Below, in pieces: positions 1-34,732 of a stretch of 34,732 nucleotides of DNA (its first letter is position 1; each line of letters starts with the position of its first letter). The position numbers and the translations under genes are program-made. The notes beneath the pieces were generated by a model that ran no database searches, was not told where the DNA came from, and saw only the letters and a program-made list of their open reading frames with translations. The stretch comes from Candidatus Hodarchaeota archaeon. GTDB lineage: Archaea; Asgardarchaeota; Heimdallarchaeia; Hodarchaeales; Hodarchaeaceae. The stretch spans positions 1 through 34,732 of the forward strand of contig JAEOTM010000115.1 of the NCBI GenBank assembly GCA_016839815.1, in the 5' to 3' direction.

Positions 1-619
1 ACTAACGACTCTTCCCAGAGAGCTAGCTCAATTAAAGTCAGTAGAAGAAATAATTCTTTCAAGAAATCTATTCTCTATTGTGCCAGATTGTTTATTATCT
101 CTATCCTCATTAAAAATTCTTCACCTTGTTGAGAATAAACTTTCTGAATTCCCAGAAGATTTGAGGAAGTGGGGTAACTTACGAGAACTCGGCCTTACGA
201 AGAATGATTTACTCCAGCTTCCTGAATCATTTGGGGATTTAACTGGGTTGGTTGAACTCTCAATGTCAAAAAATCAAATTCCAGTCTTACCAGCCAACTT
301 TACTAAGTTAAAAAAGCTAAAATTCTTCTTTGCGTACTCCTGCTCAATTCATTCCTTACCCGATAACTTTGGTGATCTTAAAGCTCTTGAAAAGCTTGAT
401 CTAAGTATCAATGAACTACATGAGCTCCCAAAAACAATAGGACAATTACCCAGACTCAAGAACATTGATGTACAACAAAACCAGCTTACATCAATTCCAG
501 AAACGCTTCTGTCACTACCCTCTCTAAGATATCTGAATTTAACGAAAAACCCATTATCTACATATACTCGAACCCAAATCATGTCACGATCACTAGAAAA
601 AGTAAAGATTTTACTCTAA
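1..619 (+). CDS. Leucine-rich repeat protein (5'-truncated by window edge)
   Basis: Repeating 23-aa LxxLxxLxLxxNxLxxLPxx units (e.g. LKALEKLDLSINELHELPKTIG). The frame is open from base 2 (LTTLPRELAQLKSVEEIILSRNLFSIVPD), so the true start lies left of the window rather than at 80. Confidence 0.92.
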   Translation, partial: LTTLPRELAQLKSVEEIILSRNLFSIVPDCLLSLSSLKILHLVENKLSEFPEDLRKWGNLRELGLTKNDLLQLPESFGDLTGLVELSMSKNQIPVLPANFTKLKKLKFFFAYSCSIHSLPDNFGDLKALEKLDLSINELHELPKTIGQLPRLKNIDVQQNQLTSIPETLLSLPSLRYLNLTKNPLSTYTRTQIMSRSLEKVKILL

Positions 620-21973: not shown

Positions 21974-22807
21974 TCAATCCTTCTTTCTCGTTTCCATTCG
22001 TATGAAAAAAAACCATGACAAAATTAAAGCAATTGCAATAATTATCCCGAAGAAACTGAATGCTTCATTCACCTCTCCAATGGTTGATATTTGCTCTTCT
22101 TGTGTCATAAAAAGGTAATTCGTGATGATATAAACCCGGAAGTACGTAGAGAACTGTAACATTTCCTCAGTGGCAAATCCCAGGTAAATTGAGCTGAAAA
22201 TGAAAAATGGAATCACAAAAAAAACGATAATTGGGAAGCCACTTCCCATTCCACTCAAAGATCTGTATTTCATCACTAATGTATTACCAAACACAGTCAC
22301 CATTAGGGGGACGGTTGAGACGATTAGTACAATAACTAGAGCGACCAAAAATCTTTCCAATGATATTGGTACGTCTTGTTGCCAAATGAAAAAGGAGATT
22401 ACACATCCAATCCATGTACTCAGACTTGTAAAAAGGAGTACAATCGCTGATGTGCTCAGTTTTCCAATAAACACTTCAGACTTCTTTGTTGATGTGAATA
22501 AGAATTCAAGAGCTGACTCATTGAGAAATAATTCTTGAATAACAACAATTGATACCAGAATATTGACCACATAAGCGAATGTGACATAAATCTGAAGAAC
22601 ATGGCCAACAAACCACTCATATCCATTCAGATGTAAGTAGATCTCTAATGAGGCATTCTGACCAGCAAAACTGACATATAATAGTGTAGGGACAAGACAA
22701 AAACTCAGGAGTATTAAGGCACGATTTGAGAACAAAAAACGCTTTGCTTCATACTTTGTAATGATTAAGCTGTTCCTGATAATGAACCAGATTTCCCATA
22801 TGACCAT
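21974..22807 (-). CDS. ABC-2 type exporter permease
   Basis: Six TM pattern, TKYEAKRF and EFLFTSTKKSEVFIGK signatures, adjacent to an ABC ATPase. Confidence 0.85.
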   Translation of the reverse strand: MVIWEIWFIIRNSLIITKYEAKRFLFSNRALILLSFCLVPTLLYVSFAGQNASLEIYLHLNGYEWFVGHVLQIYVTFAYVVNILVSIVVIQELFLNESALEFLFTSTKKSEVFIGKLSTSAIVLLFTSLSTWIGCVISFFIWQQDVPISLERFLVALVIVLIVSTVPLMVTVFGNTLVMKYRSLSGMGSGFPIIVFFVIPFFIFSSIYLGFATEEMLQFSTYFRVYIITNYLFMTQEEQISTIGEVNEAFSFFGIIIAIALILSWFFFIRMETRKKD

Positions 22808-22836
22808 TTTTGCAGGATTTTTAACTTGCGTCTTTC

Positions 22837-23487
22837 TCAGCTCTCTCTTTGAATTGGAAAATGGATTTTTCGATAATTGGTAAAATGAGCTTTCTCATGT
22901 GAGGCAGCGATTACAATATTTCCTTTCTTAGTATAATTTTTCAGATAATCCTCTAGATAACGCTTCATTTGATCATCTAAATTCGCATATGGTTCATCAA
23001 GGAGTAAAACTTTCGGTTCATTCAATACTGCAGCACATAAACCCATCCGTTGTCGCATCCCTTCGCTATACACACTAACATCAATATTTATCCATTTATC
23101 AAGTCCAAATTGAACAAGTAACCGCGTTGCTCTCTCTTTGGGGGATTTAATTCCCATAAGTCTTCCTAAATAACATAAAAAATTAAGTCCAGATACTCCA
23201 GCATGAAATTTGCATGCCTCAGGCATAAAACCAATCATGTCAAGCAATGACCTGCTTCTACGTTTTGTATTGTGACTAAATACTACAATATTTCCAGAAG
23301 TAGGCATTGACAATGTTCCTATCATTCTCAAAAGAGTCGATTTTCCAGATCCATTTGGCCCTAATAATAAGACTAACTCACCTTCGGAGATTGTTATCTC
23401 AAGATTATCAATTACTCGTACCTTAAGTCCCGCCCTCCATATTCTAAAACTTTTACTCACGTTTTGAATCGAGATTTCTCCAACCAA
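22837..23487 (-). CDS. ABC transporter ATP-binding protein
   Basis: Walker A GPNGSGKST, signature YSEGMRQR, Walker B LLLDEP and H-loop ASH. Short C-terminus. Confidence 0.93.
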   Translation of the reverse strand: MVGEISIQNVSKSFRIWRAGLKVRVIDNLEITISEGELVLLLGPNGSGKSTLLRMIGTLSMPTSGNIVVFSHNTKRRSRSLLDMIGFMPEACKFHAGVSGLNFLCYLGRLMGIKSPKERATRLLVQFGLDKWINIDVSVYSEGMRQRMGLCAAVLNEPKVLLLDEPYANLDDQMKRYLEDYLKNYTKKGNIVIAASHEKAHFTNYRKIHFPIQRES

Positions 23488-23638
23488 CGAAGTAGCACCC
23501 TTACTTCCGTAAATATAGATTATTACTCATGAAGGAACAGCTAAATGAAGTGAATATCAGAAGTGTAAAAAGATTCCTTTTCAAAAATGTTCATTCTAAG
23601 TGTGAAAGAGTATTTTTATTTGAAATTTTAGTTGGATA

Positions 23639-24478
23639 ATGATGCGAAATTTCTACTCAAAGAATTTCTTTATTGTCTTTTTCCTCTTATTATGTCTCTC
23701 TCCCATTCAAAGTATCAATTCTACTTCCCAGAATGAACCCAGACTCATCCCTTTTATCGGAATGGTTGTAAGTTATAGATTGGAAGCTCAACTTGATGTA
23801 GGATTGCCTCTACCCATCCCAGTCATTGCAAACTGGACAGTGGTCTGGGAACAGTATAATACATCACACCCCGATATTTTTATATCTACATTATCATTAA
23901 AATCGCTTTATTTGACTTTATACGGGGGAATTGATCAAGAATCTGGGATCATTGTGGAGAACATCACTTCTCGCCAGGTATTATGGGTTGAGATAGAAAA
24001 TACTACCTTTTTAAAGAAAATGTACTCACTATATTATGCTCCAGATCGGCCCAATTATTCTCCTTTTTATATTCCCACAGACGATCTAAGTATCAACATG
24101 AGTATGGGTATCTACAATTATTCAATGACTGTTATCACTAAAGATAGAATTACAGTTAGTGAATTTGGTTATCGAGATGTGTGGATTATCCAAAAAAATG
24201 TGACAAGTTCAAGTGCTGTAAACCATTTTATTAGCTTAATTTATGATGATATTACAGGTGTACTTGTGGGAGGTAGTCTTTACACTCGTTGGTTCAGGGA
24301 GAATGATACTGAGGATATATACAGTGTTAAAATTATTTGTCAGACTACAAATGCATTAGCAAGGCATTTAGTCATCATTAGAACTAATGAACTACTTGTT
24401 ATACTAATTAGTTGTTTACCCATTATCCCCTCTTTAATTAAACTAATGAAACTAAAAGAAATCAGAGGGGGTCTCTAA
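23639..24478 (+). CDS. Secreted, C-terminally anchored hypothetical glycoprotein
   Basis: Signal peptide, beta-rich body with LIYDDITGVLV, several NxS/T sequons, C-terminal hydrophobic segment and basic tail. Confidence 0.75.
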   Translation: MMRNFYSKNFFIVFFLLLCLSPIQSINSTSQNEPRLIPFIGMVVSYRLEAQLDVGLPLPIPVIANWTVVWEQYNTSHPDIFISTLSLKSLYLTLYGGIDQESGIIVENITSRQVLWVEIENTTFLKKMYSLYYAPDRPNYSPFYIPTDDLSINMSMGIYNYSMTVITKDRITVSEFGYRDVWIIQKNVTSSSAVNHFISLIYDDITGVLVGGSLYTRWFRENDTEDIYSVKIICQTTNALARHLVIIRTNELLVILISCLPIIPSLIKLMKLKEIRGGL

Positions 24479-24488
24479 CCTTTTATGA

Positions 24489-25136
24489 ATGATTGTCCTC
24501 ATAGTAAAGGGAGATTCAATGTTACAAAATCAAAAACTCGATTATTCCAGATTAATCATCTCTTTCTCTGCAATCCTAGCATTTATTCTCTTGTTCCTTG
24601 AACTACTGATTTTAACTCCTCGTCCTTGGCCGTATACAGACGGTGGTGGATGGGAACGTATTAGTCTTTACCAATCCATTTTCTGGACTCAATATATTGC
24701 TCACTGTCAGTTTTTCAAACCTACAGTTTTTGGCCTTCTTATCTGGAAATATTGGGGACTAGGTTTAGCTGTTTTCCTCAGTCAGTTCAACTATTTTAGC
24801 AAAAAAAAACCAGCCAGCAATTTCAAAATTCCAATTAATGTAGGTTATGCTTTCAGTTTGGCTCTTATTCCCCAAGTGGCACTCTATTTCTTGTATGCCT
24901 TTCGATTTCAAAAATTGTATTACCATGGCCTTTTAAATCCTCTTTTCACTCCACATTACTTGGTTATCTCATCCTTAGGGCTAATAATCTTCCCTTTAAT
25001 CACTTTTCTAGCAGCATTCGGGAGCCTTCGTTCCAAGGATATTTCCTATTTTTTCGGACTATTCGTTTGGGTTCTATTTGATATTTTTATATCATTAATT
25101 CTGCTGAATTTCTTGTTATGGGGTTGTGGAGGTTAA
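24489..25136 (+). CDS. Hypothetical polytopic membrane protein (~5 TM)
   Basis: Hydrophobic segments, 10 nt downstream of the previous gene. Start may be the MLQNQK ATG preceded by GGGAG. Confidence 0.7.
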   Translation: MIVLIVKGDSMLQNQKLDYSRLIISFSAILAFILLFLELLILTPRPWPYTDGGGWERISLYQSIFWTQYIAHCQFFKPTVFGLLIWKYWGLGLAVFLSQFNYFSKKKPASNFKIPINVGYAFSLALIPQVALYFLYAFRFQKLYYHGLLNPLFTPHYLVISSLGLIIFPLITFLAAFGSLRSKDISYFFGLFVWVLFDIFISLILLNFLLWGCGG

Positions 25137-25201
25137 TAATCATATGATAGGAGATCTTTGGAATTCACTAGTCGTGATAAGGCTGTAGAAGTAGAATAAT
25201 T

Positions 25202-25402
25202 GTGAAACTTATGAAAATTCTAACAAAAGATATCCAAATCTATATTAGATTATTCCTGTTTAATCTTGGACTAGTTGTTTCCATCTCTTCTTTCATATTG
25301 CTAGCAATTTTCAAATTTAGAATTATCCCCGGGATCTTATTTATTTTTACTTTAGTTCTTGGGATATTTATTACTCAAAAATGTATGAGGTTTAGGCGGT
25401 GA
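25202..25402 (+). CDS. Small two-TM membrane protein
   Basis: Two hydrophobic helices with a basic tail, co-oriented and closely spaced with its neighbours. Confidence 0.55.
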   Translation: MKLMKILTKDIQIYIRLFLFNLGLVVSISSFILLAIFKFRIIPGILFIFTLVLGIFITQKCMRFRR

Positions 25403-25409
25403 TTACACG

Positions 25410-26435
25410 TTGAAAGCTATAGTACTAGACAAACTAGGACGTTCGGATGTCCTTCAAGTTAAAAATGTACCCAAACCAGATATTACAACATCAAATGAAA
25501 TTCTGGTTAATTTAAAATTCTCTGGTATAAATTTTGCTGAAATTCTTGCACGTAGAGGCCTTTACAAATGGGTTCCATCGAAAAGAGGTTTTATCTTAGG
25601 AATGGAAGGAGCAGGGATTGTTGAAGAAGTAGGGGGTGATGTTACTAATTTCAATAAAGGGGATTCTGTTATCGTAGCAAGAGGATTTGGTTGTCATGCA
25701 GAATATATCTCAATAGATAAAAAATATGTTTTTCCAACTCTTCCACAATATACGTTACAGCAGAATGCAGCCTTTTCTGGATCATTCTTAACTGCTTACA
25801 TTGCACTAGTACAAATGGCAAGAGTGAGAGTAGGGGAAACTATCTTAGTTCAAGCGGCAGCAGGAGCACTAGGAACTGCAACAGTCATTCTCGCCAAAGC
25901 TCTTGGCTTAAAGGTTGCTGGAACTGCTTCCTCATCTGAAAAAATCGATTTTCTACATAAAATCGGCGTCGATTTAGGTATAAATTACTCTAACCAGAGA
26001 TTTCAGGATATAATATTGGAATGGACAAATTTTAAAGGTATCGACGTGGTATTAGAGAGTGTGGGAGGCGAAATATTTCAGAATTCCCTCTTATGTCTTT
26101 CTCCAATGGGCCGCTTAGTTTTTGTTGGTCTAAGCAGTGTTCGATTTAATAAATTCAATCCTTTAACATGGTGGTCGACATACAAACTCATCCCACGAGT
26201 TAACCTACTGAATATGCTAGGCAAGTCACAGGGAATACTCACATTTCATATAGGTAGATTACTTGATACTAGTTACACAGAATTAAGAGGAATATTTGAG
26301 GATCTAGTTGATTTTGTTTCTCAACATCAGATAACTCCTTATATTGGTAGGATTTTTCCGTTGAAAAAAATTGCAGAAGCTCATCAATTTATAGAATCAC
26401 GACAAAGTATTGGAAAAGTTGTACTAGAGATTTAG
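25410..26435 (+). CDS. NADPH:quinone oxidoreductase, zinc-independent MDR family (VAT-1-like)
   Basis: GINFAEILARRGLY, LGMEGAG, ILVQAAAGALG, GIDVVLESVGG and AHQFIESRQSIGKVVL. No catalytic Zn ligands. Confidence 0.9.
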   Translation: MKAIVLDKLGRSDVLQVKNVPKPDITTSNEILVNLKFSGINFAEILARRGLYKWVPSKRGFILGMEGAGIVEEVGGDVTNFNKGDSVIVARGFGCHAEYISIDKKYVFPTLPQYTLQQNAAFSGSFLTAYIALVQMARVRVGETILVQAAAGALGTATVILAKALGLKVAGTASSSEKIDFLHKIGVDLGINYSNQRFQDIILEWTNFKGIDVVLESVGGEIFQNSLLCLSPMGRLVFVGLSSVRFNKFNPLTWWSTYKLIPRVNLLNMLGKSQGILTFHIGRLLDTSYTELRGIFEDLVDFVSQHQITPYIGRIFPLKKIAEAHQFIESRQSIGKVVLEI

Positions 26436-26559
26436 AATCTTCAGGAGAATCATTACGATTGCTTTAGTCTTTTGAATGAGGGATGAAAAATCGATGAAAT
26501 AGGTAAGTTCAAAAAACATCTATGACAATCTTTTGTTTATTCATAATAAGGGGAAAATT

Positions 26560-27411
26560 ATGCAAAAATTAGAAACGAAAGCAACTAGTAACAAAAAAGC
26601 TACAAATGCATTATTGGGTGTAGGAGTATTTGTATTTCTAACGATCTTGATTCCATTTTTCAAATTAGGGGGGGGTTTTTTGACTTATTCTTCGTACGAT
26701 GAACTCTCTGGTTCCACAGGGACGATTGATTTCTTTTGGGACGAAATGTCTGTTTCTGTATCATTTATCGAAGTGGGATTTAGTTATTCCGATTTTTCCT
26801 CAACTTTTGGTTTCGCCTCGAATGTACAATTTGTTTGGGATCTCCTTCCTATCTGGGGTTTCCTCTTCCTAATCCTTGGAATTCTCGGAGCAGTGCTCGT
26901 GGCCATTACTCCTCTTCAACAGTTAGGAGGATCTCAACCAAGTGAATCATCATATGGAAGAAACGGTTTAATAGTTGCTTTAATAGGTACAGGTGTTGAA
27001 TATAGCCTTTTCCTTATTTTATGGGCATTTGAAGATTGGGGAACTCGACCAGACTTAAATTTGATCATTCTTGGATGTTTCATTCTAGGGTGGATAGCGT
27101 TAAGCTGGGGGCATTCAGCAGCAGCTGCGATCCCGACAAGTGACTCGATTCAATATTCAGCACCATCTAGATCCGTGATGCGACCAACATCTCTCTCGAC
27201 AAAACGATGTCCTAGCTGTAGCAATATTTGTGTTGATCATGCCACCTTTTGTGAAAAATGTGGTCAAAAATTTACGGTTGAACAAGTTATTCCAGTTACT
27301 AAATACTGTCCTATTTGTAGTTTTTCGAATAATCCTGAAGCAAAGTTCTGTGAATCATGTGGTACTCCTCTTCAGGGGAAACTAGAGGATAACGAACTTT
27401 CCTCTCCCTAG
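26560..27411 (+). CDS. Four-TM membrane protein with C-terminal double zinc ribbons
   Basis: Four TM segments, then CPSC...CEKCG and CPIC...CESCG. ATG at 26560 preferred. Its stop overlaps the convergent ankyrin gene stop (CTAG 27408-27411). Confidence 0.8.
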   Translation: MQKLETKATSNKKATNALLGVGVFVFLTILIPFFKLGGGFLTYSSYDELSGSTGTIDFFWDEMSVSVSFIEVGFSYSDFSSTFGFASNVQFVWDLLPIWGFLFLILGILGAVLVAITPLQQLGGSQPSESSYGRNGLIVALIGTGVEYSLFLILWAFEDWGTRPDLNLIILGCFILGWIALSWGHSAAAAIPTSDSIQYSAPSRSVMRPTSLSTKRCPSCSNICVDHATFCEKCGQKFTVEQVIPVTKYCPICSFSNNPEAKFCESCGTPLQGKLEDNELSSP

Positions 27412-28505
27412 GATTTTTGTGAAAGCTGTAACATTTTAATAATATCTGTATGATTTCTCTCTATCGCCAATGAAAGTGGAGAATGTCCCTGGGCCTCACA
27501 TTCTGGATCTGCCCGATGTTTCAACAGTAATGAAGTAATTTCAATATTGCCCATCTCTGCTGATCTATGTAAGCTTGTAAAGCCTCGATTATCACCTTTA
27601 TTAACATCGGCACCTTTCTCAATTAAGTATTCTACTACCTCAATATTTTGTTCTTGTACAGCAGACATTAATGCCGTTGTCCCTTCAATCGAAGGGCAAT
27701 CAATATGTGCACCATTGTGTAATAAGAAATCCATCATTTCGAAATTTTTAAGACCACTCGCCCATTGAAACGGTGAAAAACCATCTTTTGCTAAAAGATC
27801 TATGGGAATTCCTTTTTCTAAGAGATTTTTAACAGAAGTTATAGCACCTCTTGCCACTGCAATGTGAAATAAGGTAGTTGATCGTAAAGGGCTGGTAATT
27901 TTATTATTTGGTATCTGATGGTGAGTAGCTGCCAATGAAATTCTACCGAAATTGGAAAAACACCACATTGGCACTTGTTGTGGGGATTCGGCCATTTCTT
28001 TTGAAATCGGAACTGGATAGACCGTGTTATACACTAAATTTCGCATCAAGAAGTTAAAATACAGTTCTGTTGATTTTGGGGATTCATCATCTTCTACGAA
28101 GGTTCCAAGAATATCAGTTATCTCAATAGAGTCTTTTTTTTGTATAACTTGCGCTACAACTTGAACTTCTCTCAACCAACTTCTAACAAATATTATTTTT
28201 TTATCATGGTAAAAAACAGCCCACTTATCTTCCATTGCAGAAGGAACAAACAATACACCATCAAAAAGAGTACCATCTGTGGGAAAAATAAAAGACACTT
28301 TGATTTTTCTCTTATTTGGAGGTTTCTGGTCGCTGAAACTAAGACCATCATCTCCCCCATATGAGATTGCATTCTTTGCTTTTTCAGGATCTTCCGAATA
28401 AGAGGTTATTTGCGATGTGACTGGTCTTAAGTCTAATACAGGTACTTTCCATGGATTCTCCTCCGCTTTTAACCACGTTATTTCACTATCTAAAATATCT
28501 GTCAT
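27408..28505 (-). CDS. Ankyrin-repeat protein with uncharacterised N-terminal domain
   Basis: About 5 ankyrin repeats (GFSPFQWA, GTTALMSA, GFTSLHRSA, GHSPLSLA) after an ~205-aa domain containing MEDKWAVFY...FVRSW. Confidence 0.9.
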   Translation of the reverse strand: MTDILDSEITWLKAEENPWKVPVLDLRPVTSQITSYSEDPEKAKNAISYGGDDGLSFSDQKPPNKRKIKVSFIFPTDGTLFDGVLFVPSAMEDKWAVFYHDKKIIFVRSWLREVQVVAQVIQKKDSIEITDILGTFVEDDESPKSTELYFNFLMRNLVYNTVYPVPISKEMAESPQQVPMWCFSNFGRISLAATHHQIPNNKITSPLRSTTLFHIAVARGAITSVKNLLEKGIPIDLLAKDGFSPFQWASGLKNFEMMDFLLHNGAHIDCPSIEGTTALMSAVQEQNIEVVEYLIEKGADVNKGDNRGFTSLHRSAEMGNIEITSLLLKHRADPECEAQGHSPLSLAIERNHTDIIKMLQLSQKS

Positions 28506-28583
28506 TTCAATACCACCACATACTCTCTACCCAAACAAGGGAATCATAATTAACTTTTCTTTTTCCTCAGATATCGCACATAG

Positions 28584-28952
28584 ATTGCTAAGGAGAAAAA
28601 ACGCTCGGGAATAGTCAACTGGATACGGGTTGCACGCGATGCCCAGGCCAAAAAGTTAACAGAGATTCAATCTGAGAAGAATCCGCAGGACTATGATGTA
28701 ATCGTAATAGGATCTCCTATCTGGGCTGGTAATCCAACACCAGCTCTTCGGACCTATCTGACAAAGCACGATTTGAAAGGGAAGAAAGTTACGTTTTTCA
28801 TTTGCTCAATTGTAAACAGATATGCTAATGTCTTTCCTCAACTCAAGGAAATGACTCCAGAATCAGAACATGCTGGCATTTTTACCGCATCACGATTCAG
28901 AAAAGGTGACCACGAACCCGAACTTAATGCACTTATTGAGAAGCTCAAATAA
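28584..28952 (+). pseudogene. 5'-truncated flavodoxin-family gene
   Basis: Not in the ORF track. Hand translation after TAG 28581: IAKEKKRSGIVNWIRVARDAQAKKLTEIQSEKNPQDYDVIVIGSPIWAGNPTPALRTYLTKHDLKGKKVTFFICS...IEKLK*. No upstream start, and the N-terminal YxSxTGNT FMN-binding loop is missing. Confidence 0.85.
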
Positions 28953-29033
28953 TACCCTTTTCAAGGAATTAGGAAGCATGAACTGAGAGATGGGTAGAGT
29001 TCAAGTTCCCCATTCGGTCATTTAGCAGCGAGT

Positions 29034-29063
29034 CTTTACCGATTGTGGTTGAGAAGAAGAACT
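29034..29063. repeat. 30-bp exact direct repeat, copy 1 (intergenic, 5 nt past LVIVD gene stop)
   Basis: CTTTACCGATTGTGGTTGAGAAGAAGAACT, identical to 31439-31468. Flanking bases differ on both sides. Confidence 0.95.
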
Positions 29064-29068
29064 CCAGT

Positions 29069-31816
29069 TTAAGTGTTTCTTGTTTTTCTTGAAAACACAA
29101 CGACAAAAGTGAAAATCACTATAACAACATTCCAGCTAGGACTAGAAGCAGAAGTTGTTGAGGAGAGAGTTGTTGTGGTACCTAGAGTTGTACTTGAGGT
29201 GGATTCAATATTTTGAATTGTAAAGGTGATAGAACTATATGCAATATTACCTGCAGTATCACTTCCATACGCATGAAGGGTGTAAGTACCGTCAACCAGA
29301 GTACGACTAACTGTGGTAGTCCATGTATGATTTTGATTATCAACAGATTCAATAAAATACCAGTAGTCATCTGCATCCCCTGTTATTGAAACAGAAATAG
29401 TGTTTGTAGAGTATATTTTCGAGGTAGGTGAAAGAATACTAAGACTAGGAGGGGTAGTGTCAATACTAAACGTAACATTGGTGTATGCGATATTACCAAA
29501 AGAATTGTTACTATATGCGTGGAGCACATAAGTCCCATCAAGAAGAGATCGCTGAACCGAGGTAATCCAGGTATGGTTTGAATTATCAATATTTTCTATT
29601 TTATACCAATAGTGCTCAGCTTCACCAGCTAGCTCAACAGAGATAGTCTCCGTAGTATAAGTTGTAGCAATAGGGGAAGTAATGAGTATTTCGGGACGAG
29701 GAGTAACGAGAACAGTAACGGTATCATTCACATCGTTCCCAGTTAGATCATAAGCAGTACAGGTATAGTTATGAGGACCGAGAGGAAGTCCATCAATAGA
29801 GATAGTTATTGGATCACCTTGCCAAGATCCTTCTGCAATCCAAGTGCCATCTTTATATACCTGAAATGATTCTGGTTCTGATGATAAGGGCGTCCAAGTG
29901 ATAATATGGCCAGAAGTACCAAAAGCATAATCCACATCAACAGGATGATTGATACTATCAACTAAAAAGCTCTGAATAGTTGAAGTATATCCCCACTCAT
30001 CATAGAGACTTTTTGTTCCTACTCGCCAAAACCATATCCCTGGAGTTAATTCTCGCATTTGTGGCGAGGGCCCCTCATACGTTACTGTATATGACGACTC
30101 AGTAATCAGTCCCTTTTCGCGAAGATCGGGGGAATCAAAGGTTGGAGATCGGTCTAGTTGAAGGTGATAATACTCCGCATCAGGAAAGCCTTCCCAAACA
30201 AGAGTAGGGGTATTATCAAATGTCATCCAACCTTCTAAAGGGGCAAGAAGTGTTGGCGGGTCCAACTGTGAAATATGATATTCGCAGGAGATTTTGGTAA
30301 TACGGGGTGTAGACTCAAGATAATCAGTCTGTAATATTGTCTTCCATCGTAGATCAAAACCTTCTTGAGAAAAGTAAAGCCATTCTCCTTGGCTAATAAT
30401 TTCCCAGTGAATTCCACCATCAGATGATAAAAAGAAATCAATTGAAGTACCGAAAGGAATTTCACACTCTAATTCCCAAAGGATTGCATACTCAAAAAAA
30501 ACGGATCCATACGTCGCAAACATAGTAGTTGACTGAGCTGTAGCAGAGGATTCGTAATATCCAGTATCAAAAATCTCAAAAATAAGTCCAAAAACATAAA
30601 TAGCATCTTTGTCCCTGAAGATTGATAAATATTCTTGAGGATGGGCACCAGATAGAGAAATAGTTGCGATTTGTATTGGATTGGACGGATTACGTAAATC
30701 AAATACCTGAAATCCGGCCTGGAAAGTATCACCATATACGATATATCCTTCTGTTTTATCAGCCCAATATGAATCCACCCAGACTGAATGAACTTTTTGG
30801 GGAGTTGAGTAGGTTGTAAGAAAAACTGGGTTCGTGGGAGAGCTTACATCAATTATGTGGAGTCCTTGATCTAGATCACAGAGATATGCATAATCTCCTG
30901 AAGAATCATCTACGACAAAAATTGTTGTAGGTTTACTTCCAATAGTGAAATTTGCTGAAAGCGTTAGGTGAGTTGGATCACTAATATCAAAAATATAGAA
31001 TCCTTGATAACCATCTGGAACGAAAAGATGGTTACTTAACAGAAATGTATCAATATTAAAATCAAAGCCTGTAAATTGAAAGGAAACCGGAATTCTAAAA
31101 CTAGATTCTAGAATCGGATCAGTGACATCAGTTATATTTATACTCATCATTGAATAGGAGGTATGTTCAAAGGCAGGATTAAAGTGATAAGCGAGGACAT
31201 ATACCCACTCTCCTTCAATATTAATGTCCGCCATAATAAAAAATTCAGAAGAAAAATCGGTTTGATTTGAAACCGAACCGATTGGGATAGGATTAAGCGG
31301 ATCAGCTACATCTAATATTGTAAAATAGCTTGTTAAGGTAAAATCCACTGAATCGATATAATAATTTGTTAAACACAGATAATCACCAAAAGATGTCATC
31401 TGATACTTAACATCTAGACTGAAATTCGTGTTAATCCACTTTACCGATTGTGGTTGAGAAGAAGAACTTATCTCTACTATTTCTAATCCACCCATGCTTT
31501 CTTCTTCAGTAAAAAAAGCGTATTTGTCACCCGCATGTTCTGTTATAGCAAAACTGTGTGCTGGTTCAAGGAGGTCTTCAGAACCTTCCTTTGAAAAACT
31601 TTTAGGTAAAGAAATTTCTCCAGAATGCTCTTCCCATCCTTTAACAGTAGTATTTCCAAAATCCGTATAGGTTGACGTTGTAAAATTTTCTGAAAAACTT
31701 GGATCAAACCCATTAACTTCTTGAATATTAGTAGGGAAACTCTCTCCTCCAATGGAGAGAATCAAAACTATTAATATGATAATGCCGATTACATCCCTCA
31801 CTCTCCTATTTTGCAT
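29069..31816 (-). CDS. Surface protein with LVIVD beta-propeller repeats, Ig-like domains, Ser/Thr linker and C-terminal anchor
   Basis: Signal peptide. Repeats GLEIVEIS, ILDVADPLNP, GFYIFDISDPT, GLHIIDVSSPTNP, GFQVFDLRNPSNP. Ig/FN3-like domains including a similar tandem pair. STSSTTLGTTTTLSSTTS linker, then SPSW + TM + RKTR. Confidence 0.88.
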   Translation of the reverse strand: MQNRRVRDVIGIIILIVLILSIGGESFPTNIQEVNGFDPSFSENFTTSTYTDFGNTTVKGWEEHSGEISLPKSFSKEGSEDLLEPAHSFAITEHAGDKYAFFTEEESMGGLEIVEISSSSQPQSVKWINTNFSLDVKYQMTSFGDYLCLTNYYIDSVDFTLTSYFTILDVADPLNPIPIGSVSNQTDFSSEFFIMADINIEGEWVYVLAYHFNPAFEHTSYSMMSINITDVTDPILESSFRIPVSFQFTGFDFNIDTFLLSNHLFVPDGYQGFYIFDISDPTHLTLSANFTIGSKPTTIFVVDDSSGDYAYLCDLDQGLHIIDVSSPTNPVFLTTYSTPQKVHSVWVDSYWADKTEGYIVYGDTFQAGFQVFDLRNPSNPIQIATISLSGAHPQEYLSIFRDKDAIYVFGLIFEIFDTGYYESSATAQSTTMFATYGSVFFEYAILWELECEIPFGTSIDFFLSSDGGIHWEIISQGEWLYFSQEGFDLRWKTILQTDYLESTPRITKISCEYHISQLDPPTLLAPLEGWMTFDNTPTLVWEGFPDAEYYHLQLDRSPTFDSPDLREKGLITESSYTVTYEGPSPQMRELTPGIWFWRVGTKSLYDEWGYTSTIQSFLVDSINHPVDVDYAFGTSGHIITWTPLSSEPESFQVYKDGTWIAEGSWQGDPITISIDGLPLGPHNYTCTAYDLTGNDVNDTVTVLVTPRPEILITSPIATTYTTETISVELAGEAEHYWYKIENIDNSNHTWITSVQRSLLDGTYVLHAYSNNSFGNIAYTNVTFSIDTTPPSLSILSPTSKIYSTNTISVSITGDADDYWYFIESVDNQNHTWTTTVSRTLVDGTYTLHAYGSDTAGNIAYSSITFTIQNIESTSSTTLGTTTTLSSTTSASSPSWNVVIVIFTFVVVFSRKTRNT
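31439..31468. repeat. 30-bp exact direct repeat, copy 2 (inside LVIVD CDS, codons SSSSQPQSVK)
   Basis: Identical to 29034-29063, 2405 bp away. Confidence 0.95.
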
Positions 31817-31821
31817 TCATC

Positions 31822-31870
31822 TCACCCAGTTTTCCCTAATCATGGATCAATAACTATTATAAATTTATCG
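31822..31870 (-). promoter_or_regulatory. Archaeal BRE/TATA promoter and RBS for the LVIVD gene
   Basis: Minus strand CGATAAA-TTTATAAT (31870-31856) about 40 nt upstream of the ATG, and GGTGA at 31826-31822. Confidence 0.55.
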
Positions 31871-31962
31871 AGTAAAAAGAGATACCACAATTATTATGAT
31901 AGATGATAAATTCATTACAATAGTTCTTGTTCTAATGAAAATTCCTTTTTTTTCTTTGTCGC

Positions 31963-32850
31963 TTATTTTTCTAAAAACGTCTTTAACAGCGGATTTACAA
32001 ATTCAGGATGGGTATATTGAGGGATATGCCCACCTCCAGTGATAGCATGAAATTCAATTTCCGGTACCGCTTCAATTACTTTTTTATGCGTATTAAATGG
32101 AAGATTCTGGTCAAGATCGCCCCAAAATAGCTGCATTGGTATTTTCTTACCGACTCTGGTATACACATCTCGTAAATTAGTGAAAGAAATATTCTTCAGT
32201 GTTGAGCGTAGAGCTTGCATGATCCCTTTATACTCGAATTGTTCCATGTACTTCTTCATGTATTTTTTAACGTTCGGATTTTGATGTTGGAAATCAGTTT
32301 GTTGCCCTTCTATCAACATTTCAGGACTGAAGAATCTCATTGTAAGTTGATTTAGAAGAGGTATACGAAGATAAAAGGGAAGAGTTCTGGAATCCGATGG
32401 AAAACCAATCGGAGAAATTAGAGTGAGTTTACTAACCATATTCATATAGTGATCCGCAAATGTCACACATATTCCTCCCCCTAAATTAAAACCAACGAGT
32501 GACAAATTATAATCGTGTATCTGGAGTCTCTCTAACAGCTTGTAAAGTTGATCCACTAGAAATTCTATAGTATACTTAGCTTTCGGACGATCAGAGAATC
32601 CCCGACCAAATAGATCATATCTCAAAACTCGGAAACCAGCATTAACAAGAGTTCTAAAGGTATGATCATAGACCAATAGCGGTGCTGTAAACCCAGGTAC
32701 TAAAATGACATTTTTACCATTTTCTGGCCCTTCTAATTCATAATAGACTTGTCCTCCAGAAATCTCAACAAATTTACCTGGAAGGGATTGTCTTTCAGAT
32801 GCCGTAAGAACTTTGGATTCATATTTAGTTGAGTTTAAATCGCTTCCCAT
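31963..32850 (-). CDS. Alpha/beta-hydrolase fold protein with non-canonical nucleophile elbow
   Basis: YDLFGRGFSDRP, LVGFNLGG, WGDLDQ (acid) and GGHIP (His). Confidence 0.9.
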   Translation of the reverse strand: MGSDLNSTKYESKVLTASERQSLPGKFVEISGGQVYYELEGPENGKNVILVPGFTAPLLVYDHTFRTLVNAGFRVLRYDLFGRGFSDRPKAKYTIEFLVDQLYKLLERLQIHDYNLSLVGFNLGGGICVTFADHYMNMVSKLTLISPIGFPSDSRTLPFYLRIPLLNQLTMRFFSPEMLIEGQQTDFQHQNPNVKKYMKKYMEQFEYKGIMQALRSTLKNISFTNLRDVYTRVGKKIPMQLFWGDLDQNLPFNTHKKVIEAVPEIEFHAITGGGHIPQYTHPEFVNPLLKTFLEK

Positions 32851-33147
32851 TATTTGGTCTCTCGACAGTTCTTGAAATCGTGGGTATTTTAGATAGAATA
32901 ATTTTGGGAATCACTATTCATTTCTAGAACGGATGATTTTTCAGACTTCAGTTATGTAATTACCGAAATAACAGAGGTCTCTAAGTTCAGTCGACTCCAA
33001 GGGATAGCTTAATAATTTTTGGTTGGTTTTACTCACTTCTTGTTCTCGATTCTGACATAGACGTCCATTTCCTAGAGATCCCCATAATTTTGGGGGATTT
33101 TCACAATAAGAAGTAGAAGATGAATCCACTTACTGCGATAGGTAAAC

Positions 33148-33872
33148 CTATTCGATTAATCCATGACTGAATTGGTTCATCGTAAAAGAACTCTCCGAAC
33201 CCTCCGCTATGATGGTACCGTTATTGATAATACCAATTCTGGTACAGAGTTGTTGGGCTAGGTTCATAATATGACTGGAAAACAAGATAGAACCCCCTTG
33301 TTGAATATGAAGTCGAAAAATTTCTTTCCAAATCACAGCGGATCGAGTATCCAGACCTGAAAGAGGTTCATCTAGTATTAAAAGTGGTGGCCTGTGTAAT
33401 AAAGCGGTAATAATTTCTATTTTCCTTTTATTACCCTTGCTGAGACTTGCAATCAATCAGGTATAATATTTTCTAGCATTTAATACCGTTAATAGATGAT
33501 CCAAGGTTTTATACGTAGACTCTGGATTAAGATTCCGTATTGAGGTGATAAAATCTAATAATTCCTTAACAGTCATCGATTCATATAACGAAGATTCTTC
33601 AGGAAGGTACCCAATCAGCTCCTTTACTTGAATCGGTGATTTTATTGGATCATATCCTGCAACCGAGATGTTTCCTGAGTCAATTTCCAATAAACCAAGT
33701 ATTGATTTAAGAGTTGTCATTTTTCCTGCCCCATTTGGTCCTAATAAGCCATAAATTTCACCAGTGAATACAGTAAAGGTAAGTTGATCTACTGCTGTTG
33801 TTTGGCCAAAGTTTTGACTAAATTATTCACTCTTAAGACCGTTTCATTTTTATGTTGTTTAAGATTTCTCAT
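33148..33872 (-). pseudogene. Decayed ABC exporter ATP-binding gene
   Basis: Start MRNLKQHKNETVLRVNNLVK at 33872 (GGTGA RBS). A 1-nt frameshift near 33812-33816 leads into FGQTTAVDQLTF...GPNGAGKMTT. In-frame TGA at 33457-33459, then LSKGNKRK, LILDEP, SSH. Homology appears to end after IIAEG. Confidence 0.9.
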
Positions 33873-33894
33873 TTATGTTTCACCATGGGAATTT

Positions 33895-34269
33895 TCATGT
33901 ACCCAATTGAAAGAGTTGTTGCATGGATTCTCTATACTTATCAAATGCTTTTCTTCCATCCTTTGTCAAACTGATATATGTTCTGGGCGTTTTTTTAGAA
34001 CTTTTCTTCTTTTTAACGAGTTCTTTCTTAAGTTCCACATAACCCACCTCTTGCAGTTTATCTAAATGTGAGGCTAATCTCCCCCAAGTGAATTCAGTTT
34101 GATTCTTTAAATATGTAAAATCTGTTTCTTCCAATGAGTATAAATAAGCAATGATCTTTAACCGAGATGGATCGTGTAAAGTTTTATCAATTTCATTAAT
34201 GGTATCCATATCAATTGGAATAGAGCTAGTTTTTTTCTTAGGCGTCATCATTATCTTCCTGTATGTCAA
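33895..34269 (-). CDS. Winged-HTH transcriptional regulator (ArsR/MarR-like, HTH_34 type)
   Basis: LHDPSRLKIIAYL...DFTYLK.......G.LASHLDKL...GYV...PRTYISLT..GR.AF. Real start may be a downstream Met. Confidence 0.88.
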   Translation of the reverse strand: MTYRKIMMTPKKKTSSIPIDMDTINEIDKTLHDPSRLKIIAYLYSLEETDFTYLKNQTEFTWGRLASHLDKLQEVGYVELKKELVKKKKSSKKTPRTYISLTKDGRKAFDKYRESMQQLFQLGT

Positions 34270-34732
34270 GCTGTTCAGAATCTTTAATTATTGGATATTT
34301 TTTTATGAATCTAACAAAAGTAATGAGTCCAATAATGATAGAAATGCTTCCTAATAGTAGTAGATAGATTGTGAAACCAAATTTGGCATTTGGGAAATTC
34401 AACCAGACTATTAACGATCCTAAACTAGTTGAAAATATTCCAATACTGTAATATATTCTTTGACCCGTTTTATCGACCAAATCAAGACTGGGACCAAACA
34501 TAATTAATCCAAAAACGATGGGTAGAAATCTATACCAGTTATCATAGTCGTAAAGTACTCTAGGGTCACCACCAGTAAATGCTATTAACAGAATAAGAAA
34601 TGCAATAATTATCCCAAATGTAAACAGAAGTATACCTGGAAGTAGTTTCTTAGGATCTTCCGTTTTTACTTTAAAATACCCAAGACGAGGATAGGTAAAA
34701 CGAGATTGCAATGATTTGTATAAATAGATAAA
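34238..34732 (-). CDS. Hypothetical membrane protein (5'-truncated by window edge)
   Basis: Frame open to the window end (FIYLYKSLQSRFTYPRLGY...), at least 4 TM segments, directly upstream of the wHTH regulator. Confidence 0.8.
   Translation of the reverse strand, partial: FIYLYKSLQSRFTYPRLGYFKVKTEDPKKLLPGILLFTFGIIIAFLILLIAFTGGDPRVLYDYDNWYRFLPIVFGLIMFGPSLDLVDKTGQRIYYSIGIFSTSLGSLIVWLNFPNAKFGFTIYLLLLGSISIIIGLITFVRFIKKYPIIKDSEQLDIQEDNDDA

Follow-up and report, generated by a model that had tools for sequence, protein, structure and literature searches.

A 30-nucleotide copy of a surface-protein coding segment next to a synteny breakpoint in an Asgard archaeon: probable templated filler DNA

The window analyzed here is a stretch of 34,732 nucleotides from an Asgard (Heimdall-group) archaeon. 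It is the complete contig C67 of genome G000, a MAG of 4.24 Mb in 206 contigs (89.5% complete, 7.8% contamination). In this window, 30 nt of the coding sequence of a surface-protein gene occur a second time just past the stop codon of the same gene. We consider that the downstream copy (copy 1) is probably a one-off, non-functional piece of templated filler DNA at a rearrangement junction. This reading rests on the exactness of the copy, the native state of its source, the presence of a breakpoint with microhomology, an adjacent pseudogene, and the uniqueness of the repeat in the genome. The original prediction, which was made from the sequence alone, had offered three options for copy 1, i.e., the guide part of a small RNA, one half of a recombination pair, or a scar. 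Only the scar is supported, and copy 1 is a single ordinary mutational footprint. The features involved are listed in Table 1.

Table 1. Features at the junction between the flavodoxin-like pseudogene and the surface-protein gene
Feature	Position	Strand	Remarks
5'-truncated flavodoxin-like pseudogene	28587..28952	+	Equivalent to residues 36-157 of the G001 protein (157 aa)
Flavodoxin 3' flank (spacer) with weak stem-loop	28953..29033	+	Common only to G009
Derived 30-mer copy (copy 1)	29034..29063	-	Same orientation as source; non-coding; out of frame with gene stop
CCAGT between copy 1 and stop codon	29064..29068	.	Right-hand junction, 5 nt
Surface-protein gene, 915 aa	29069..31816	-	LVIVD beta-propeller and Big_13 Ig-like domains (Pfam scan)
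Source 30-mer copy (copy 2)	31439..31468	-	Codons 117-126, SSSSQPQSVK, in frame

The repeated segment, CTTTACCGATTGTGGTTGAGAAGAAGAACT as read on the plus strand, was found by a window search at the two sites given in Table 1, with 30 of 30 positions identical at both, and the exact duplication was thus confirmed. No third site was found in the window when up to 3 mismatches were allowed, and the whole genome of G000 contains only these two copies. Their starts are 2405 nt apart, and the arrangement is of the form R-B-R (30-mer, 2375 nt, 30-mer), which equals one unit plus 30 nt. Copy 1 lies 5 nt beyond the gene's stop codon (29069-29071), as had been claimed. The flanks of the two copies have an ungapped identity of 17% and 25% over 40 nt; because they are unrelated on both sides, the copies have sharp ends, again in agreement with the earlier observation. 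A chance origin had been judged implausible, and controls bear this out: none of 100 shuffled windows gave two matches to the 30-mer, and the longest local repeat in a Markov control was 18 nt. In a census of exact repeats of at least 24 nt across G000, the 30-mer was the sole isolated pair within one contig that reached 26 nt; the others were tRNAs, paralogues, IS ends or a known multi-copy repeat. It also ranked first, as the longest isolated pair, in a census of local repeats in G000 (k of at least 15, within 5 kb). The 24-nt core of the 30-mer had no exact match in metagenome, genome or viral contig collections.

Which of the two copies is native can be judged from the protein. The surface protein begins with an N-terminal TM/signal segment and ends with a C-terminal TM segment and a basic tail. 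No exact match to it was found elsewhere on record, and the gene has no nucleotide-level relative among the relatives compared. Its nearest homologues are 39-45% identical, the two closest, at 42-45%, coming from G020 (45%, the closest) and G001. The source copy sits inside a conserved blade motif, GLEI..IS.P..P, and residues G110, L111, E112, I113, I116, S117, and P122 are invariant in the alignment. Both the G020 and the G001 homologue align without gaps across SSSSQPQSVK, with residues in 10 of 10 columns. The coding copy is therefore the original, and the copy past the stop derives from it. The 3' end of the gene encodes RKTRNT* in the window and RRKQNRN* in the G020 homologue, and the native 3' end is intact. 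Read-through from the gene into copy 1 was considered and rejected, as copy 1 and the stop are in different reading frames.

On its other side, copy 1 adjoins what is left of a flavodoxin-like gene and its 3' flank. The first 35 codons of this gene are missing and no start codon occurs in frame ahead of position 28773, which makes it a pseudogene. A DNA search of the genus matched positions 28594-28953 to the 3' part of flavodoxin-like genes in four species, at 86-94% identity. The spacer that follows was found, among 83 genomes of the class, in G000 and in one of the 82 others, G009 (CP070695.1, Ca. Heimdallarchaeota bin6), which is among these four species. The window and G009 are identical at 164 of 174 positions in the flavodoxin coding 3' end (28779-28952) and at 80 of 86 positions (93%) in 28953-29038, and identity then drops to 24 of 60 (40%) in 29039-29098. 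Homology to G009 therefore stops within the first five bases of copy 1, the left edge of which lies at most 5 nt from the synteny breakpoint. The junction reads GCGAGT CTTTA CCGATT in the window, GCGAGT TTTTA TTCAGA in G009, and AATCCA CTTTA CCGATT at the source copy in the gene. TTTA is common to all three sequences, and CTTTA is common to the window and the source. Beyond the breakpoint, the G009 flank meets a convergent PNP_UDP_1 gene at its 3' end, with the stop of this gene 11 nt from the breakpoint; no close counterpart of this gene was found in G000, and a synteny search revealed no neighbors shared by the G009 locus and the window on either side. In G009, a 100-N gap lies just upstream. 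By comparison with this relative, copy 1 is located at a rearrangement breakpoint, the position that a filler insertion would occupy. We infer that G000, not G009, is in the rearranged state; this direction rests on one relative that is non-syntenic on both sides.

The flavodoxin 3' flank adjoins a variable region of accessory surface-protein genes. Between 22 and 34.7 kb, the window matches relatives solely as separate blocks on different contigs. In G001, G016, and G021, a hydrolase-like gene is located directly upstream of flavodoxin. The G000 orthologue of this gene is found at the very edge (start) of another contig, C78, and the genes downstream of flavodoxin in G016 and G021 have no orthologues in G000. 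A C-terminal fragment of an ABC ATPase is present at 33148-33456, and the ORF that abuts it has a weak, below-cut-off match to DUF6119. Around the breakpoint, accessory genes form a decaying mosaic.

Because G000 is a fragmented MAG with the completeness and contamination given above, copy 1 might be an artefact, produced by chimeric reads or by a chimeric contig in the metagenome bin, and the division of the native flavodoxin neighborhood between contigs C78 and C67 fits such an origin. However, all exact 127-nt repeats in G000 (16/16) are overlaps between one contig end and another. These overlaps point to a de Bruijn assembly, and its final k appears to have been 127. As this k is larger than 30 nt, each copy is held together with both of its flanks within single k-mers, and collapse or mis-resolution of the repeat is excluded as the source of copy 1. 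Doubly chimeric reads could still yield it, but they would have to create two novel junctions 30 nt apart, and the left flank is independently supported by G009. An artefact of this kind is very unlikely.

How such a footprint could have been formed may be pictured as follows. An accessory surface-protein gene would have become linked to the 3' flank of a flavodoxin gene in decay. In the course of break repair, or of a template switch during replication, 25-30 nt would have been copied from codons 117-126 of the gene, i.e., from a template 2.4 kb away on the same DNA molecule, and the nascent end would have annealed to the flavodoxin flank via the 4-5 nt of microhomology, TTTA/CTTTA. We infer that the mechanism was templated synthesis of the SD-MMEJ type or an MMBIR-like process. 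The original prediction had named a templated-insertion or duplication-deletion scar as its third option, and the breakpoint with its microhomology, the adjoining pseudogene, and the uniqueness of the repeat in the genome all favor it. Two features count against templated filler: the right junction (GAACT followed by CCAGT) shows no microhomology to the flank of the source copy, and the template is direct and 2.4 kb distant. The absence of mismatches in 30 nt, compared with 7% divergence in the neighboring spacer, dates the event only weakly. Copy 1 may have incidental activity.

The two junctions could also have been made in two steps. A tandem duplication of 29064-31468 (2405 bp), followed by deletion of the left copy save its last 30 nt, predicts that the duplication was joined at 29063/29064 and the deletion at 29033/29034. 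It would explain why the R-B-R arrangement is exactly one unit plus 30 nt; the blunt right junction suits a duplication junction, and microhomology of the kind seen at the left junction is frequent in deletions. This history, however, invokes two independent events where one suffices, and its deletion must land exactly on the G009-type flank. No remnant of a second gene copy was found. We therefore regard a duplication followed by a deletion as unlikely, and prefer a single templated insertion.

The first option of the original prediction was that a stem-loop beside copy 1 serves as the scaffold of a small RNA and the 30-mer as its guide. A stem-loop is indeed present at approximately 28982-29020 (5 + 5-6 pairs with a 3-nt bulge), but its stability does not exceed that of shuffled sequences. 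The z-scores against shuffles were -0.63 for the stem-loop alone and -0.41 for the whole spacer, and a further fold gave +0.57; with values so close to the shuffled level, the stem-loop is no more stable than shuffled sequence. The spacer had only chance-level matches in Rfam and belongs to none of its families. A functional RNA of this kind, transcribed from the plus strand, would comprise the stem-loop and the 30-mer and would target the surface-protein gene or its mRNA, either by antisense pairing or as a guide. The 30-mer has a spacer-like length, and transcription of the plus strand would yield an RNA antisense to the coding copy. By eye, an A/T-rich, TATA-like stretch covers the flavodoxin stop and lies approximately 25 nt ahead of the hairpin; a T5 run is located downstream, at approximately 29080-29090.

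Comparative data speak against such an RNA. It had been suggested that the hairpin might recur in the genome in front of other gene-matching segments, but neither the stem-loop nor the spacer has a second copy in G000. In public collections, a 26-nt hairpin-arm pattern was detected only in CP070695.1 (G009). The hairpin is present in 1 of the 82 other genomes of the class, and it was not found in metagenome contigs; nor was the core of the 30-mer detected in viral contigs. A check of related loci for self-matching 3' segments had also been proposed. G009 shares only the flank, and the 30 nt that follow the flank in this organism have no second match in the G009 genome, with up to 3 mismatches allowed, so that the idea of a conserved scaffold with a variable guide fails the one available test. 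Within a genome that is 89.5% complete, a periodic k-mer scan found no CRISPR array and a search for Cas1, in which positive controls were detected, found no Cas1. No direct repeat flanks copy 1, its two flanks being approximately 44% alike by eye. Three TnpB loci occur in G000, all outside the window, and the spacer has no similarity to any of them. A guide or antisense function for copy 1 is, on this evidence, exceedingly improbable.

Several related ideas were examined and rejected. A tRNA remnant or att site was dismissed, as ARAGORN found no tRNA in the window and the loop motif GTTCAAGT is too short. The candidate for a degenerate CRISPR repeat, AGTTCAAGT/AGTTTAAGT, consists of two sequences 67 nt apart whose likeness ends after 9 nt, and the second of these is coding. 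A segment of the 30-mer, ACCGATTGTGG, is complementary to the 3' arm of the hairpin at 9 of 11 positions, and approximately 0.5 such matches are expected by chance (an estimate).

The remaining option was that the two copies recombine and excise 2405 bp, which would turn off the surface protein or exchange a cassette. Most of the surface-protein gene does lie between two identical 30-bp direct repeats, and their spacing agrees with this proposal. The predicted product of the deletion, however, is aa 1-126 followed by TRC*, and the change would be irreversible. The alignment with homologues is collinear across copy 2, no second example was found in the genome, and no alternative cassette bears the 30-mer. 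Pfam scans of the window, which covered most ORFs of at least 90 aa, apart from two giant surface-protein genes and the HMGS gene, identified no recombinase, RT or guide-directed nuclease in the ORFs scanned. This is consistent with the earlier statement that the window encodes no nuclease, recombinase or RT; the sole DNA enzyme in these ORFs is an Fpg/Nei glycosylase (1492-2343). An att pair was also considered, and it meets the same two points, i.e., a recombinase is absent from the scanned ORFs, and the gene, which aligns collinearly with its homologues, would be truncated if the 2405 bp were removed. A diversity-generating retroelement was rejected because there is no RT in the scanned ORFs and the copies, of only 30 nt, do not differ from each other.

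A programmed exchange would have a parallel in G020, in which the closest homologue is a cassette between multi-copy repeats: it is flanked on both sides by the multi-copy repeat of the genus, with the downstream copy approximately 3-10 nt past the stop. However, this repeat has no match in the window (and its G020 copy has none in Rfam). Recombination between the two 30-mers as a switch or cassette exchange is accordingly very unlikely, and the pair could at most serve as a chance substrate for deletion, with no indication of programmed use. The repeat-bounded cassette of G020, together with the fact that the window gene is also cut 5 nt past its stop, suggests one more reading, in which copy 1 is a footprint of accessory-gene cassette movement in the genus. 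A circular, rolling-circle or transcript-templated intermediate of one unit plus 30 nt could then have given rise to the R-B-R arrangement. We assign this variant only a very slight chance.

Copy 1 is of little importance by itself. As a clean, natural templated filler insertion, it would show that error-prone joining with template copying takes place in an Asgard (Heimdall-group) archaeon. It also illustrates that recurrence, conservation or machinery is needed before a self-targeting 30-mer beside a hairpin is called a guide RNA or a phase switch.

It is useful to place copy 1 among known systems that produce or use short repeats of this kind. Like a self-targeting CRISPR spacer or mini-array, it is 30 nt long and exactly matches a gene of its own genome; unlike a CRISPR spacer, it has no flanking repeats, and its genome has neither an array nor Cas1. 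The omega-RNAs of TnpB and IscB consist of a scaffold with a guide immediately 3' of the element end, and in the window, similarly, a stem-loop precedes a boundary by 13-18 nt and a gene-matching segment comes next. In contrast to omega-RNAs, the spacer resembles no TnpB locus, the stem-loop is insignificant, and the adjacent segment in G009 has no target. As in deletions of surface genes mediated by direct repeats, identical direct repeats bracket most of the gene and could recombine, but the pair is confined to a single locus, with no recombinase and no reversibility, and its location at a breakpoint accounts for the repeat. The repeat-bounded cassettes of the genus, as seen in G020, resemble the window in that the gene is cut shortly after its stop, and differ from it in that the window carries no copy of the multi-copy repeat.

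The best match is provided by templated insertions (filler DNA) at junctions, which have been described for SD-MMEJ (PMC2943611), for MMBIR (PMC8421209), and, as short templated insertions, at yeast breaks (PMC11724301). The signature used by MMBSearch is an inverted copy less than 100 bp away (PMC8421209); copy 1 differs from it in being direct, with a template 2.4 kb away and a blunt second junction. It also differs from all of these cases in its host, an Asgard archaeon. As in known templated insertions, copy 1 is a short exact copy at a rearrangement junction, with microhomology on one side, and represents a single event with no associated machinery.

By nucleotide comparison, the stretch from 22000 to 34732 of the window is a mosaic. 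Five blocks within it match different species of the genus at 76-94% nucleotide identity, each on another contig, and the stretches between them, including the entire surface-protein gene, have no nucleotide match in species of the genus.

The flavodoxin-like gene is truncated at its 5' end, covering residues 36-157 of 157, and is without a start codon. The orthologue of the usual upstream neighbour of flavodoxin is present in the source genome (82% amino acid identity versus G001, a relative), where the beginning of contig C78 cuts it off. From these two features, the native flavodoxin locus has either been rearranged or been divided by an assembly gap. In the Heimdallarchaeota relative G009 (CP070695.1, labelled a "complete" chromosome), a run of exactly 100 N lies directly upstream of the flavodoxin 3' fragment, so the left limit of the shared segment is unreadable there. 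A further rearrangement junction may lie where two short ORFs abut, one an ABC ATPase C-terminal piece and the other with a weak DUF6119 match (E = 4e-4, below cut-off). Eukaryote-like repeat proteins are also encoded on the contig: an ankyrin-repeat protein adjoining the flavodoxin-like pseudogene, and an LRR protein where the contig begins.

The surface-protein gene has its closest homologue in the relative G020, between co-oriented copies of a ~100-nt multi-copy repeat that contains the stretches …GTGTGGAAAGTGTCAGTCCTCTCGTTTT…GCCTTAAGGAGTCAAATAG…. The source genome has at least 30 copies, with none in the window; the G020 copy has no Rfam match. On contig C196 of the source genome, a duplicated Rab-like GTPase unit is seen as an exact 57-nt repeat.

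Features of the window and of related loci
Feature	Location	Positions	Strand
Matched blocks	window	22002-24477, 25385-26439, 28594-28953, 31965-32825, 33197-34697	
Flavodoxin-like gene	window	28587-28952	+
Upstream-neighbour orthologue	C78	1-938	
100-N run	G009:C1	9715-9814	
ABC ATPase piece (ABC_tran 107-136 of 137)	window	within 33148-33720	-
DUF6119-like ORF (158-233 of 524)	window	within 33148-33720	-
Ankyrin-repeat protein, 365 aa	window	27408-28505	-
LRR protein	window	1-619	+
~100-nt repeat	G020:C106	1235-1299, 4003-4099	co-oriented
~100-nt repeat	source genome: C62, C196, C120, C107, C132, C133, C158, C192, C199, C13		
TnpB-like loci	C149; C170; C40	31044-31244; 844-1041; 426-626	

Elsewhere in the source genome, three TnpB-like (Cas12f1-like_TNB) loci were found. 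Near the one on C149 are exact repeats of 25-40 nt, common to C149, C45, C185 and C47, which look like the ends of IS200/605-type elements.
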